NCBI GenBank assembly: GCA_965262855.1
Contig: OZ253563.1
Location: 424,914 to 488,913, forward strand
Length of the DNA: 64,000 bases
Source of the DNA: Arenicellales bacterium
GTDB taxonomy: Bacteria > Pseudomonadota > Gammaproteobacteria > Arenicellales > JAJDZL01
Reading direction: 5' to 3'
The position numbers and the translations under genes are program-made. Below the pieces are notes generated by a model that was given only the letters and a program-made list of their open reading frames with translations, ran no database searches and was not told the origin of the DNA. Shown here piece after piece: positions 14,255-22,559 of this stretch. How positions within the stretch are numbered: position 1 is the first letter of the stretch; each line of letters opens with the position of its first letter.

Positions 14255-17200
14255 TTATTCCACTATAACCGTCGGACAGAGGACTTCAGCTTGCTCCAAT
14301 ACGGTGTTTGTTGCTTTCTCCCGCTTGTCAGGTGGGTAACCGTACTGTCGTAGAATCCGTTTCACTTGTACGCGAAGATTTGCGCGTACATTTTCGCGAA
14401 TTGTCCAATCGATAGTGACATTGTTTCGTACGGTTTCAACCAATTCTCGGGCGATTGTGCATAAGATTTCATCTCCCAGAACCTTCACTGCACTGTCATT
14501 GGTTTCAAGTGCTTCATAGAATGCCAGTTCATCTTCCGACAGTCCGAGTTCTTCACCGCGGGCATCTGCTTCACGGAGACTTCGAGCGAGTTCAATGAGT
14601 TCCTCAATTACCTGTGCGGCTTGAATGGAACGATTTTGGTAGCGATTAATGGTTTGCGCCAACATTTCCGCAAATGAACGCGCTTGAACAACATTCCGTT
14701 TCCGTCGTGCCGCGATTTCGCCTTTCAAAAGTTTTTGCAGCAGTTCGGCGGCAAGGTTGCGGTGAGACATGTTTTGAATTTCTGATAGAAATTGTTCAGA
14801 CAGGATTGACACTTCAGGTTTTTCCAAACCAACAGAGTCGAATATGTCGATAACACCCTCTGATGAAACCGCGCGTGAAATAATTTGACGTACTGCGTGG
14901 TCCAGCTCTTCGTCGGATTTCACATCACTTGGTGCGCGTTTTACAAGGCTGGCACTTACGGCCTGAAAAAAAGCCACATCGTCGCGAATTCTAATGGTGT
15001 ATTCGTGTGGAACAGCTAGAGCAAATGCTTGGGTCAATTCGCGAACCGCTCGAATGCAACGGTCTTTGCCGTCCTTTTGGGCAAGGATATGTTCCTGTGC
15101 TGCTGGCAATAAATTCAGACGAACTTTGGCATCTCCACTCATCCAAGTTGACCAATCGAAGCCGTGGAACAAACCGCAACATATTTCGTACTTCTCACGC
15201 AGTACAGAAACTGCTTCATTTTGATCTAGCGTAGTTTTTCCCTTGCCGCCGCTTTCTGTGTAATCGGCCAGTGCTTTCTTAAGTTCGTGGGCGATTCCTA
15301 AGTAGTCGACTATGAGTCCGCCTGGTTTGTCTTTGTAAATGCGGTTGACGCGGGCAATTGTCTGCATGAGCCCGTGACCGCGCATTGGCTTATCCAAGTA
15401 CATTGTATGAAGACTGGGTACGTCGAATCCGGTTTGCCACATGTCGCGTACAAGTGCAACGCAAAAGGAATCTTCAGCATCACGAAATCGATTGGCCAGT
15501 GTTTCACGCCGAGATTTGTTTCTTATATGTGACTGCCAGTCAGTTGGGTCGTGTGCTGCACCTGTCATTACCACCTTGATATTTCCCTTATCGTCATCGT
15601 CATCGTGCCAATCGGGGCGCAGTTTTGTCAGTTCGCGATACAGTTCAACGCATATTCTCCGACTCATGCAAACAATCATCGCTTTACCGTTCATTGCTTC
15701 AAGACGCTGTTCATAATGATCCACAATGTCCTGAGCAACCAGTTTCAAACGTTGCGGCGCGCCTACGATTTTTTCCAGTTGCGCCCATCTTGATTTAAGA
15801 TTTTCCTTTCGAGCTTCTTCTTCGCCTTCTGTAACCTCATCGAAGTCGGGATCAATATTCGGTTTTTCGTGTTCGTCAAGTACCAACTTAGCGAGCCGAC
15901 TTTCGTAGTAGATTGGCACGGTGGCCTTATCGTCAACTGCCTGCTGGATATCGTAGATGCTGATGTAGTCTCCGAATACAGCGCGAGTGTTGGCATCCTG
16001 CAATTCGATTGGTGTACCAGTAAAGCCGACAAATGAAGCATGGGGTAATGCATCACGCATGTGACGTGCAAATCCGTCGATGAAGCCATACTGACTGCGG
16101 TGTGCTTCGTCAGCGATAACTACGATGTTGCGGCGTTTCGATAGTATTGGATGTTGATCGCCTTTTTCGTCTGGGAAAAATTTCTGAATAGTCGTAAATA
16201 CTACACCGCCTGATTCAACATCGAGTTTAGCCCGCAGGTCGGTTCTGCTTTCAACTTGTACTGGTGGTTGGCGTAATAGGTCCCGGCAACGTGAAAACGT
16301 AGCGAACAGTTGGTCATCAAGATCGTTGCGGTCCGTCAAAACCACGATTGTCGGGTTTTCCATTGCCGGTTCACGAATAATGCGTCCAGCGTAGAAGGCC
16401 ATCGTCAAACTTTTGCCCGAACCCTGCGTATGCCAGACAACACCGATACGACGGTCACCCAATTCTCCACCGGACATACGATTATGTTCGTGTTCACTGG
16501 GAATTTTGGAAATTTCATAGGTGCGTTGCAGCTTTGCTGCACGGAGTGTTTCATCAACCGCTACGTTGACCGCGTGGAACTGGTGGTAGCCAGCAATCTT
16601 TTTAGTTATTGTTCCGCCGCCATCGTCTTCAAATACGGTGAAATCTCGTATCAAAGCAAGAAATCGATCAGGTTTGCAGATGCCATTGAGCAGGACCTGC
16701 AATTCTGGTAATTTTGAGTCAGCTTCCATTTCACCGGAAATAGTGCGCCAAGATTTGAACCACTCAAATCCGGCGGTTAACGTGCCGATTCGAGCATCAA
16801 TTCCATCAGAAACGACAAGTATGCCGTTCATAGCAAACAAGTTGGTCAGTTCGGATTTGTAAGTCTGCAACTGGTTCCATGCGGATCGTACAGTCGCGTT
16901 TTCGTCTGCAGGATTCTTGAGTTCGATGATGCCGAGTGGCAGCCCGTTAACGAACAACACGATGTCGGGTCGGCGTTCGTGCTTATTTTCTGTAACTGTG
17001 AATTGGTTAACTGCCAACCAATCATTGTTCAGTGGATTTTCAAAATCGAGAACTTGCGTCTGTGCACCTCGTATAGCACCGTCAGATGCACGATATTCCA
17101 CAGTGACACCGTCAGCAAGCATTCGATGAAATGCTCGATTACGCATTTCGACACTGGTTCCTTCTGGATGAGTTAATTTAAAAAACGCATCGTTCAATGA

Positions 17201-17398
17201 ACCAGAAGGAAGTGACGGGTTCAGTTGTGCAAGTGAAGATTGAAGCCGTTCAATCAGCACAATATCGCCGTAATTTATTCGTTCTGCACTGAACGTATTT
17301 GGGGCGATTGCTGCTCCATAGGCAACGCGCCATTCAAGGTCGTCAAGCCAATTCAGACAAACTTCTTCGACATCAAATTCGGTAACACTAGATACCAT
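14255..17398 (-). CDS. hsdR: Type I restriction endonuclease subunit R
   Basis: [19 protein letters not shown] (PD-ExK), [26 protein letters not shown]. Confidence 0.97.
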
Positions 17399-17403
17399 GA
17401 ATT

Positions 17404-20525: not shown

Positions 20526-20940
20526 GGTTTCGTTCCCTGAGCTCCTGTAGTAGGAAACGCATGTCGCGGAGGAATTCATCCGCCGCATCGACGGTTTCCT
20601 CCGCCCACTCGGCGTTGTAGGTCTGAGACGTCGCATTCCGCAATTCTCGATAACGCATGTATGAGGGTGCGCCACGAATGATGCCTGCGTTGGTCGCGTC
20701 GCGCATCAGGTCAGCGAAGTCCATCTCAAGCAACGCATCGGGATTGGCAACGATCTGAGTAAGCTGTTTCCGGATCATTCTGATGGCCAACTCATAGCTG
20801 AACTCGAATGCTTGAATGGTTGCTGCGCGGAACTGCTCGTACAATCCCAAGTCTTCCAGCGCAAGCTCGGAATGAAGGTAATCGAAACTCCTTTGTAGCT
20901 GTGCGACAGCACTTTCCAGAGGCGAGTAGTCGAGTTTCAT
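20512..20940 (-). CDS. HEPN-domain protein (HI0074 family) with degenerate RNase motif
   Basis: [22 protein letters not shown] (His replaced by Gln); overlaps the hsdM stop and the MNT-hsdS start. Confidence 0.88.
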
Positions 20941-22559
20941 CGTGGTGTCCGTGGGTTCCAGAATCCTAGTGCTTTGAGGTTGTCAGCGATAGCCGTGTCC
21001 AACCGTGCGGCTTCGGTCTGTTGCTCGCGTAGTTGCGCAACGAGCCGTCTCATCTTATCTTCAAAAGGTTCGTCATCTTCTTCCTGAGGTGCAGTACCAA
21101 CGTAGCGGCCCGGGGTTAAAACGTAGTCGTGTTTGCGCACCTCATCTATAGCAGCGCTTTTACAAAATCCAGGCACGTCAGCGTAATCAAAGTCGCCGTT
21201 CCCACTTCGCCATGCGTGATAGGTATTAGTAATTTGTTGGATGTTCTCATTAGTTAATTCGCGATGAGTACGATCCACCATACGACCGAGACTTCGTGCA
21301 TCAATGAACAAAATTTCGTTTACACGATCGCGAAATTTTTCCCCTTGCCGATTTCGAGCAAGAAACCAAAGGCAGACAGGAATCTGAGTGGAGTAAAACA
21401 ACTGACCTGGCATTGCTACCATGCAATCGATAATATTCTCTTCAACTAAATTCTTACGAATTTCCTTTTCGTTGGATTGGCTTGTCGACATTGACCCGTT
21501 AGCAAGAACAAATCCAGCTGTGCCACCTGTTTTCAGATGGTAAACAATATGCTGAATCCACCCATAATTGGCGTTGCCCTTAGGTGGCACGCCATATTTC
21601 CAGCGTTTGTCTTCGACTAATCGTTCGCCGCCCCAATCAGAAATATTGAACGGCGGATTGGCAAGAATAAAATCTGCTTTGAGATCGGGATGCTGATCAT
21701 CATGAAATGTATCTCCATGTTTGATATCGCCTTCAATTCCACGAATCGCAAGATTCATCTTCGCAAGACGCCATGTAGTGTAATTTAATTCTTGGCCGAA
21801 TATGCTCAGATCCGCCGCCACTACCTTTCCGCCGTTTCCGTTTCCAGTAGTATGCGCGCGGATGAATTCGAGCGACTGAACAAACATGCCGGATGAACCG
21901 CAGCATGGGTCGTAAACCCGACCGCGCCACGGTTCCAGCATTTCAACCAATAGTTTCACGATACTATTCGGGGTATAGAATTCACCGCCTTTCTTGCCTT
22001 CCGCACTCGCGAATTGAGCAAGAAAATACTCATAAACTCTACCGAGTACATCTCTGGCACGAGCATCTGCATCTCCAACTTTGATGTTGCTGACAAGATT
22101 TACGATTCGACCGAGACGTTGCTGATCTAGTACTGGTCGGGCAAAGTCCTTAGGCAATACATCTTTGAGTGCAAGGTTATCGCGTTCAATACTTACCATC
22201 GCATCGTCCACGATTTGGCCAATTGTTGGCTGAGGCGCCGAAGCTTTGATATACGTCCACCGAGCTTCCGTTGGTACCCAAAAGATGTTTTGCGCAAGAT
22301 ATTCATCAGGGTCTTCAGGGTCCGCACCGTCAGCAAGTTCGGTCTCAAGTTGGGCCTGCTTCTCTTCGAAAGCATCGGAGATGTATTTAAGAAAAATCAA
22401 GCCAAGAACTACATGTTTGTACTCAGCGGCATCCATGGACCCGCGGAGCGCATCAGCCATCTGCCAAAGTTCTGCTTCGTAACCCGTTGTTGCACTATTT
22501 TTGTTTGGCTGTTTTCCAGAGTTTGTTTTTGATTCTTTTGAATTTTCTCGTTGGGGCAT
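20937..22559 (-). CDS. hsdM: Type I DNA methyltransferase subunit M
   Basis: [32 protein letters not shown]. Confidence 0.97.

Follow-up and report, generated by a model that had tools for sequence, protein, structure and literature searches.

A 64,000-nt stretch of the genome of an Arenicellales bacterium (assembly GCA_965262855.1, contig OZ253563.1, positions 424,914-488,913; hereafter the window, with position 1 as its first letter) carries a type I restriction-modification (R-M) operon in which an MNT nucleotidyltransferase domain, a candidate antitoxin, forms the N-terminus of the specificity subunit HsdS and follows directly on a gene for a predicted HEPN ribonuclease toxin (HEPN1). Five co-directional genes on the minus strand, identified from the list of open reading frames (ORFs) and with Pfam and NCBIfam models, lie in the order hsdM, HEPN1, MNT::HsdS, KAP and hsdR (Table 1), and an earlier, sequence-only reading of this DNA had placed all five correctly. 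It had also seen that the hsdM stop and the HEPN1 start have an ATGA in common. Its further claim that the HEPN1 stop overlaps the GTG start of the fusion gene needs correction: the GTG lies at 20525-20523 and the stop at 20514-20512, and the two frames overlap by 14 nt. In related loci this overlap is mostly 4 nt. The frames of hsdM, HEPN1 and the fusion gene are tightly coupled in translation. The GTG is supported as the true start because homologues begin with M-x-P-I-D-I.

By its gene content this is a type I R-M operon, with predicted methylation and ATP-dependent restriction at a bipartite site. HsdM has the domains expected of a methyltransferase subunit, HsdS has two target recognition domains (TRDs) and two conserved helices, and HsdR combines a nuclease, a superfamily 2 (SF2) motor and a C-terminal domain. 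MNT::HsdS is the sole specificity subunit of the operon. A scan of 12900-23000 returned 9 promoter-like sites against 16.0 from shuffled sequence and 9 terminator-like sites against 9.8, numbers that are uninformative on operon structure; the RNA runs X19 and X20 contain 0.10 and 0.06 of the sampled words.

Table 1. Genes, domains and residues of the operon and of the second HEPN-MNT pair, in window coordinates.
Feature	Position	Strand	Evidence
hsdM, type I methyltransferase subunit, 540 aa	20937..22559	-	N6_Mtase PF02384 E 7.6e-110; HsdM_N PF12161 E 5.9e-26; PADLOC MTase_I E 4.8e-216
HEPN1, 142 aa, HI0074-family, predicted RNase toxin	20512..20940	-	PF08780 E 1.2e-22; TIGR01987 66.9 bits
MNT::HsdS fusion gene, 556 aa, GTG start	18855..20525	-	Polbeta, NTP_transf_2 and two Methylase_S stretches
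MNT domain, residues 1-100, HI0073-like	20226..20525	-	1no5 (HI0073) match; GS-x10-DxD and FRVDIVDW intact
Linker, residues 101-110	20196..20225	-	Sequence variable; modelled at low confidence
HsdS part, residues 111-556: TRD1, conserved helix 1, helical insert, TRD2, conserved helix 2	18855..20195	-	AlphaFold2 model; Specificity_I models; Methylase_S
KAP-family P-loop NTPase, 477 aa, between hsdS and hsdR	17404..18837	-	PF07693 E 5.1e-39, 134.7 bits (cut-off 20)
hsdR, type I restriction subunit, 1047 aa	14255..17398	-	HSDR_N E 2e-43; SWI2_SNF2 E 6.5e-79; T1RH-like_C E 6.7e-135; TIGR00348 E 1.3e-175, above cut-off
Gln106 codon CAG, at the His position of Rx4HxY in HEPN1	20623..20625	-	Sequence; alignment; contigs
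HEPN2 (RNKLSHIY), free-standing, downstream of hsdR	13343..13756	-	PF08780 E 1e-31
MNT2, free-standing partner of HEPN2	13026..13346	-	Polbeta E 2.5e-13

The fusion gene runs from its MNT part into HsdS with no stop codon between them, as had been claimed. In the encoded protein a Polbeta match covers residues 27-100 (E 2e-10), and the profile scan that the sequence-only reading had proposed thus recovers a nucleotidyltransferase domain together with two stretches of Methylase_S. The PADLOC Specificity_I model PDLC03068 spans residues 104-555, and a complete HsdS therefore begins where the MNT domain ends. The catalytic motif GS-x10-DxD of the MNT domain (G31, S32, D43 and D45) is intact, again in agreement with the earlier claim, and G31, S32, D43, D45, D76 and D79 do not vary in 91 fused proteins, nor in a set of 30 in which fused and free proteins are mixed. 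An AlphaFold2 model of the fusion on 91 homologues (mean predicted local distance difference test (pLDDT) 86.2; predicted template modelling score 0.71) has an MNT fold at residues 8-99, followed by TRD1, a long helix, a helical insert, TRD2 and a second long helix. The pLDDT falls below 50 at residues 102-106 and the alignment of homologues diverges after about residue 100; as modelled, MNT is a separate domain on a short linker of low confidence. In the secondary structure of the model it is without a long C-terminal helix.

The same arrangement is found far outside this genome. Residues 1-150, comprising MNT and the junction, match 343 protein clusters of 305-973 aa (E <= 0.001), and among the matches listed 118 of 120 clusters contain both PF18765 and PF01420. 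An exhaustive phmmer search with the 110-aa MNT against 1.84 billion representatives gave 1144 matches at E <= 1e-10; in the best 150 of these (50%-identity representatives) GSx9-11DxD is kept in 148, and 78 proteins are at least 400 aa long, 50 have 161-399 aa and 22 have 160 aa or fewer. A scan of one genome per species yielded 69 genome loci, which were annotated by phmmer with the window proteins as queries. MNT and HsdS share one frame in 26 of them, and the fused loci come from at least seven phyla (Acidobacteriota, Gemmatimonadota, Rhodothermota, Pseudomonadota, Binatota, Spirochaetota and Chloroflexota); a further fused locus, whose upstream flank is missing, belongs to Poribacteria. 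A HEPN gene lies directly upstream in all 24 fused loci that have an upstream flank, hsdM abuts the HEPN gene in 22 of these 24 (the exceptions being L003, where hsdM follows hsdR, and L009), and hsdR is found within the fetched downstream flank in 20 of the 26. Plasmid pZMOB01 of Zymomonas mobilis ATCC 10988 encodes, in this order, a methyltransferase, an HI0074-family protein with the motif RNLTSHTY, a protein of 527 aa annotated as "restriction endonuclease subunit S" whose N-terminus is an MNT, and HsdR. In the plasmid record (NC_017180.1) hsdM lies at 30878-32470, HEPN at 3-392, MNT::hsdS at 389-1972 and hsdR at 1969-5154. Plain "restriction endonuclease subunit S" is also how fused proteins are annotated publicly. 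The fusion is genuine and recurrent, far beyond chance, which contradicts the outcome that the sequence-only reading had named against itself, namely that homologues are never fused.

The ZM4 plasmid system HsdRMSp had been suspected of the same layout, on the basis of a skipped gene number (x027) and of two domain superfamilies in HsdSp. Its record shows hsdM abutting a 420-aa hsdS, without HEPN and without MNT. An experimental study of Z. mobilis ZM4 HsdRMSp, in which deletion of hsdSp is viable (PMC8432527), therefore says nothing about the MNT::HsdS system.

Could the fused frame be an artefact of assembly or gene calling, in which hsdS and an MNT gene of its own are parted by a stop codon or frameshift that was missed? 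The genome consists of one contig of 3.7 Mb, and the only near-identical contig in public runs (X1, depth 4.9) may be the source of the window DNA and so is not independent. The read check that had been proposed for the junction was made on Logan contigs of four runs (X1, X4, X6 and X8) placed on 20000-21000, in place of raw reads. These contigs carry no insertion or deletion in that interval, and the junction is crossed gap-free by one X6 contig (20000-20379) and one X8 contig (20000-20255), which come from two other studies. The frame is moreover open in hundreds of independent assemblies and in the finished plasmid of a cultured strain, and an artefact of this kind is essentially excluded. 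Several contigs of X4, X6 and X8 match the window as far as 20226-20236 and then diverge at the boundary between the conserved MNT and the variable TRD1; this divergence in three other studies suggests that many TRD1 alleles stand behind one hsdM-HEPN-MNT platform.

Where does the MNT domain come from? The best sequence relatives of both partners are HI0073 and HI0074 of Haemophilus influenzae, to whose families they belong; these are separate small "hypothetical" proteins in the PDB, with no HsdS fusion. Among solved structures MNT comes closest to HI0073 (1no5; residues 4-106, E 7e-26); it is further removed from Shewanella MntA (5yep; E 7.6e-4) and from the MNT of Legionella pneumophila (8xeh; E 8e-3). 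HEPN1 matches HI0074 best (1jog; E 8.3e-20), followed by the L. pneumophila HEPN toxin (8xdj; E 1.4e-5). HEPN1 passes the cut-offs of both families to which it was compared (66.9 against 55.8 bits for TIGR01987; 80.7 against 31.8 bits for PF08780). At about 40 of the 69 loci the HEPN->MNT pair (40-55% identity) stands free, with no hsd genes adjoining it, and free-standing relatives occur in 29 plasmid records. The embedded pair thus derives from an ordinary mobile two-gene module. Our reading of these sequences is that the operon would have taken in an HI0073/HI0074-type, type VII-like HEPN/MNT pair between hsdM and hsdS, whose antitoxin then became the N-terminal domain of HsdS. The HEPN proteins are 71-75% identical across phyla, which indicates that the whole operon has moved between phyla.

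The history of the fusion was followed in a quick maximum-likelihood tree of MNT, with 115 of 279 rows (all locus and window rows and every fifth database protein) and 107 columns. In this unrooted tree, which has several long branches, two MNT lineages split at 100*, and the label fused or free requires 11 parsimony changes, at least four of them on starred branches. Rows labelled free that lie inside fused clades (L008, L010, L012, L022 and L032) have lost or broken HsdS and kept a short MNT ORF, mostly beside HEPN. The window itself contains an MNT of each kind, since MNT2, which lies downstream of hsdR with its partner HEPN2, is so distant from the fused MNT that each barely matches the homologues of the other. 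MNT2 has 56 matches to longer proteins, with PF01420 in 51, and in one Rhodothermales locus (L035) a HEPN2-type gene precedes an MNT2::HsdS fusion. Of the tree, only the starred minimum of four changes and the 100* split are relied on. Because it is unrooted and short, the claim is limited to this: the fused state cannot be put down to one recent accident, and two distant MNT lineages show it.

These data bear on whether the fusion does anything at all. A toxin-antitoxin (TA) cassette could have landed between the translationally coupled hsdM and hsdS and lost its stop harmlessly, with the TA and R-M functions independent of one another. With genes that overlap by 4-14 nt, one point change can fuse MNT to hsdS, the short linker varies and is flexible in the model, and slots of R-M operons often hold unrelated cargo, such as KAP here and a 753-aa protein in the related locus L002; one survey collected 17,432 genes embedded in BREX, DISARM or type I R-M systems (bioRxiv 10.1101/2024.01.29.577857). 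A neutral origin of this kind is nevertheless improbable, since fused proteins outnumber the others among the nearest MNT relatives (78 of the best 150 with at least 400 aa), and the fused form is maintained in at least seven phyla and occurs in both of the distant MNT lineages.

The partner gene deserves equal attention, and here the window departs from its relatives. In type VII systems MntA poly-adenylylates the Tyr of the Rx4HxY motif and so neutralises the HepT RNase, as in the Shewanella oneidensis pair SO_3166/SO_3165 (PMC7641770; PMC4621449). The HEPN1 motif reads RNATSQTY: R101 and Y108 are kept and Gln106 replaces the His, a point that the earlier reading had overlooked. Position 106 is His in 44 of the 45 other aligned HEPN sequences, which keep the Arg and the Tyr as well, and the exception is a degenerate fragment. 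In an alignment of 27 HEPN sequences R101 is invariant, and N102, T104, H106 and Y108 occur in at least 90%. The nearest relative, L002, from an Arenicellales metagenome-assembled genome (MAG) with a HEPN 95% identical to HEPN1, has RNATSHTY. On the plus strand, position 20623 is G (codon CAC, His) in contigs of X4 (contig depth 63.6/63.6), X6 (17.3/23.7) and X8 (9.4/9.4), and is C in the window and in X1 alone, where it is carried by one contig of depth 4.9. As only X1 agrees with the window, Gln106 is either a strain-specific mutation or a low-coverage error. A 242-nt X6 contig of depth 6.4 with a strand-switch joint spans 20623 without a listed difference, which is at best a weak hint of the Gln allele outside the probable source sample.

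What the substitution would do depends on the model of catalysis. In the classical HEPN model the Arg and the His are catalytic (PMC3710099; PMC4621449), and His106Gln would weaken or kill the RNase. In the L. pneumophila HEPN, R98A and H103A retain RNase activity and toxicity, the active site is the Mg2+ site of Q44/E47, and Y105 is the site of AMPylation (PMC11586414); on that model the substitution would not have this effect. HEPN1 keeps Q43 and E46 of the corresponding IQxFE site as well as Y108, and on these two grounds a reading of HEPN1 as a toxin killed by His106Gln is set aside. The toxin of this genome is possibly compromised. Elsewhere, the upstream HEPN is intact (R..H.Y) in 20 of the 24 fused loci and truncated in four, namely L009 and L015-17, the latter being three copies in one genome. 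HEPN itself is hardly ever fused; among 2732 candidates there is one longer match, of 251 aa, with a piece of the HsdR C-terminal domain.

If the tether is selected, what is it selected for? We assign a probability of about 0.42 to a role as a backup defence like PrrC or Ronin, coupled to the state of the R-M complex. The MNT domain carried by HsdS would bind the HEPN oligomer and adenylylate Tyr108, keeping the RNase toxin off, by homology to MntA/HepT and to the L. pneumophila pair; HEPN toxicity and adenylylation of Tyr108 by this MNT are predictions for the window pair. Every MNT would sit in, or await, an M2S1 or R2M2S1 complex, and control of the toxin would accordingly be expected to depend on the state of that complex. 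Should the methylase core or HsdS be lost, or be blocked or titrated (by DNA-mimic anti-restriction proteins, for example), newly made HEPN would stay unmodified and shut down translation, as an abortive-type second line. The tether sits on HsdS, and it is the DNA-binding surface formed by this subunit that DNA mimics target. A physical role of the tether is favoured because a free MNT gene would suffice for co-expression or addiction, and yet the tether recurs. The sequence-only reading had offered a guard against anti-restriction proteins, addiction to hsdS and AMPylation-based control of the R-M enzyme as possibilities. Its interpretation is partly supported: the anatomy stands, and so does the fusion as a selected feature, given its spread over phyla, its presence in two lineages, the invariant catalytic residues and the HEPN gene upstream.

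A stronger form of this guard can be proposed, in which the M2S1 core is itself the antitoxin. HEPN would be adenylylated only by an intact, unoccupied complex; Ocr- or ArdA-like mimics, or loss of HsdS, would switch off or hide MNT, and fresh HEPN would arrest translation. Such a widespread guard would sense anti-restriction enzymatically, by a mechanism unlike that of PrrC or Ronin, and two MNT lineages would each have given rise to it, which makes at least two inventions. We put this fuller version forward tentatively and consider it somewhat unlikely as it stands.

A number of points weigh against a guard. The conserved His is absent from HEPN1, and truncation of the HEPN gene in 4 of 24 fused loci implies that the toxin is dispensable in some hosts. 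MNT scores 42.7 bits with NF047752, the NCBIfam equivalog model for MntA, under the cut-off of 60, and the closest characterised HEPN, that of L. pneumophila, matches HEPN1 only at E 1.4e-5. AMPylation is covalent, and release or block of MNT would therefore free only newly made HEPN. A sensor would also need the MNT active site to respond to the state of the complex, for which there is no known route. Finally, the plasmid-borne free pairs fit addiction as well as defence. A complex prediction from the HEPN and MNT alignments (score 0.02, mark 0.32) counts neither for nor against binding.

To our knowledge, type I R-M systems are not addictive in themselves, and a selfish TA pair could make the operon, or its hsdS cassette, hard to lose, with no sensing of phage and with the fusion locking the antitoxin to expression of hsdM and hsdS. 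The abundance of free HEPN->MNT homologues and their frequent residence on plasmids (about 40 of the 69 loci; 29 plasmid records) speak for addiction alone, as do the plasmid location of the Z. mobilis example, the movement of the operon between phyla, the tandem cassettes of L035 with a toxin for each, and the loci L008, L010 and L022, nested in fused clades, where HsdS is lost or broken and a short MNT ORF stays beside HEPN. Addiction, however, needs co-expression and not a covalent tether, which recurs in two MNT lineages, and at some loci the toxin has decayed while the operon persists. The position of MNT at the N-terminus also matters, since a nonsense or frameshift mutation in the TRDs truncates HsdS and still leaves the antitoxin; loss of HsdS function would go unpunished, and the case for addiction to hsdS is weakened. 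We therefore regard addiction or stabilisation alone as unlikely.

The two proteins could also be read as a two-subunit nucleotidyltransferase, with HEPN binding the substrate and MNT modifying an R-M subunit, DNA ends or a phage protein, and thereby regulating or extending restriction. PF08780 has a name and fold class that recall this role, and the original reading of HI0074 was as a substrate-binding subunit; HEPN domains domesticated to regulate nucleotidyltransferases are described (PMC3710099). The MNT catalytic residues are invariant even where HEPN is truncated, and HEPN1, without its His, is otherwise whole, Tyr included. Domesticated HEPN domains, however, typically lose the motif (PMC3710099), whereas its R, H and Y are present in 44 of 45 relatives here. 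The nearest characterised relative is a toxic RNase AMPylated by its own MNT (PMC11586414), and HEPN is not fused to MNT. All this makes a two-subunit enzyme highly improbable.

The guard that we favour has parallels in several characterised systems, and the background on which the sequence-only reading drew, adenylylation of the Tyr of Rx4HxY by MntA (PMC7641770) and the holding of PrrC by EcoprrI (PMC3710099), is in print. HepT/MntA shares with the window a small HEPN adjoining an MNT with GSx10DxD. The window HEPN is instead of the PF08780/HI0074 type, with no PDB match to SO_3166 at E <= 0.01, and the window differs further in its HEPN-then-MNT order, an MNT without the long C-terminal helix, the fusion to HsdS and the Gln for His. 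The free small antitoxin typical of type VII is also absent: the genes are adjacent and coupled, but the candidate antitoxin makes up the N-terminal domain of HsdS, in a protein of 556 aa. Closest by sequence among functionally characterised pairs is the L. pneumophila HEPN-MNT (8xdj/8xeh), with a short MNT without helix alpha4, an RX4HXY motif, poly-AMPylation at Y105 and an IQxFE metal site (Q44/E47) that corresponds to Q43/E46 of the window (PMC11586414). As described there, that module consists of two free-standing genes with no R-M context, whereas the window pair is embedded and fused. In single-chain MNT-HEPN TA systems, MNT is covalently joined and HEPN is controlled by oligo-AMPylation (PMC13000451); there MNT is fused to the toxin itself, whereas in the window it rests on an R-M subunit and the toxin is free.

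PrrC and Ronin supply the precedents for control by an R-M enzyme. PrrC, a HEPN anticodon nuclease, is held latent by the type I enzyme EcoprrI and freed when a phage anti-restriction factor hits that enzyme (PMC3710099). The two operons share a HEPN RNase gene inside a type I hsd operon, but in PrrC the nuclease is joined to an N-terminal ABC-type ATPase, whereas HEPN1 has 142 aa and PF08780 only, and control of PrrC is by protein contact, whereas the window has a candidate covalent-modification enzyme fused to HsdS (PMC3710099). In Ronin, HsdM-HsdS keeps the RonA toxin suppressed and ArdA, Ocr or Aop1 unleashes it, a precedent for the methylase core as a sensor (bioRxiv 10.1101/2023.04.06.535777). 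As reported in that preprint, RonA is a 61-aa membrane peptide, and the system is a decoy with no hsdR and no enzyme on HsdS; the window has hsdR and a soluble HEPN.

Several elements of this picture are already in print, among them links between HEPN and R-M and the PrrC analogy (PMC3710099), the type VII chemistry (PMC7641770; PMC11586414) and genes embedded in type I operons (bioRxiv 10.1101/2024.01.29.577857). No description of MNT fused to HsdS was found in the literature text, and an earlier depiction is possible in figures and supplements, which lay outside the search. The fusion is not described in the available text of PMC3710099, PMC3632139, PMC2701414 or PMC12839542. In the text of the first of these, "HsdS", "specificity subunit" and "HI0074" have zero occurrences, the legend of Figure 5 defines "RM_TRD", and those HEPN domains that are linked to R-M are said to fuse to nucleases, helicases and ATPases and not to methylases. 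Defence genes that nest between hsd genes, as KAP does here, belong to the embedded-gene scheme, and a domain fused to HsdS falls outside it as set out in the text (bioRxiv 10.1101/2024.01.29.577857).

Proteins annotated as "restriction endonuclease subunit S" can hide an extra enzymatic domain. Phage anti-restriction proteins are directed most often at type I R-M enzymes, and we know of no toxins other than PrrC and Ronin that are held in check by an R-M core. An antitoxin enzyme within HsdS would, if true, be a third solution, chemically different from both, and would supply a biological role for the HI0073/HI0074 family, whose structures are solved and whose function is obscure. Should the fusion prove neutral, it would still serve usefully to mark one type I R-M lineage that moves horizontally. 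The choice between guard and addiction is directly testable because the layout exists in hundreds of clusters, in at least seven phyla and in the cultured, engineerable Z. mobilis ATCC 10988.

The KAP gene, which the sequence-only reading had listed in the order of the operon, has no match in any of the 69 related loci; it is variable cargo, outside the conserved unit and private to this genome. It occupies the slot between hsdS and hsdR, which is also where prrC lies. KAP matches the PADLOC candidate PDC-S20 (PDLC04959; E 1.2e-113 over 3-460 of 464) and, more weakly, PifA (E 7.6e-23). PDC models represent genes embedded in BREX, DISARM or type I R-M systems and are candidates without demonstrated function (bioRxiv 10.1101/2024.01.29.577857). 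MNT2 weakly matches PDC-S09, and neither HEPN1 nor HEPN2 has a match among the PADLOC models. The equivalent slot of L002 holds the 753-aa protein (12083-14344), which has no Pfam match.

Architectural variants of the operon are also found. In the Rhodothermales MAG the tandem arrangement (L035:7832-17368) runs hsdM, HEPN, MNT::HsdS (613 aa), a HEPN2-type gene, an MNT2-type::HsdS (667 aa) and hsdR, so that each of the two specificity subunits in this operon comes with a toxin of its own. Tandem MNT-MNT-HsdS proteins occur (P0006-P0008), and in some HsdS fusions a nuclease-like domain (DUF559, PF04480, or PF18741) is inserted centrally; variants with a tandem MNT or such an insert include P0006-P0009, P0011, P0036, P0070 and others, and P0121-P0128 among the matches of MNT2. 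One Vicinamibacterales contig carries four operons of this type (L004, L015, L016 and L017), with some hsdM, hsdS or hsdR genes split; three of the four have an identical MNT, a HEPN that ends right after the His (107 aa) and HsdS proteins of differing length. In a Bryobacterales MAG (L008:9579-12423) a methyltransferase and a HEPN are followed by a free 120-aa MNT, two unknown ORFs and, in the place of HsdS, a Fic/DOC protein.

The second pair of the window, HEPN2-MNT2, is bracketed by a 226-nt direct repeat (90% identical) at 12807-13032 and 13816-14041. The repeat copies the 5' end of an aldehyde dehydrogenase gene (11533-12996) and leaves an ORF for a duplicate 65-aa N-terminal fragment (14005-13808), and it looks like the scar of a cassette insertion. 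Elsewhere in the same genome a second HsdS lies at G000:C1:3114842-3116137, in a 551-aa open frame that the MNT search did not match, and a third full PF08780 HEPN gene lies at G000:C1:2134209-2134577.

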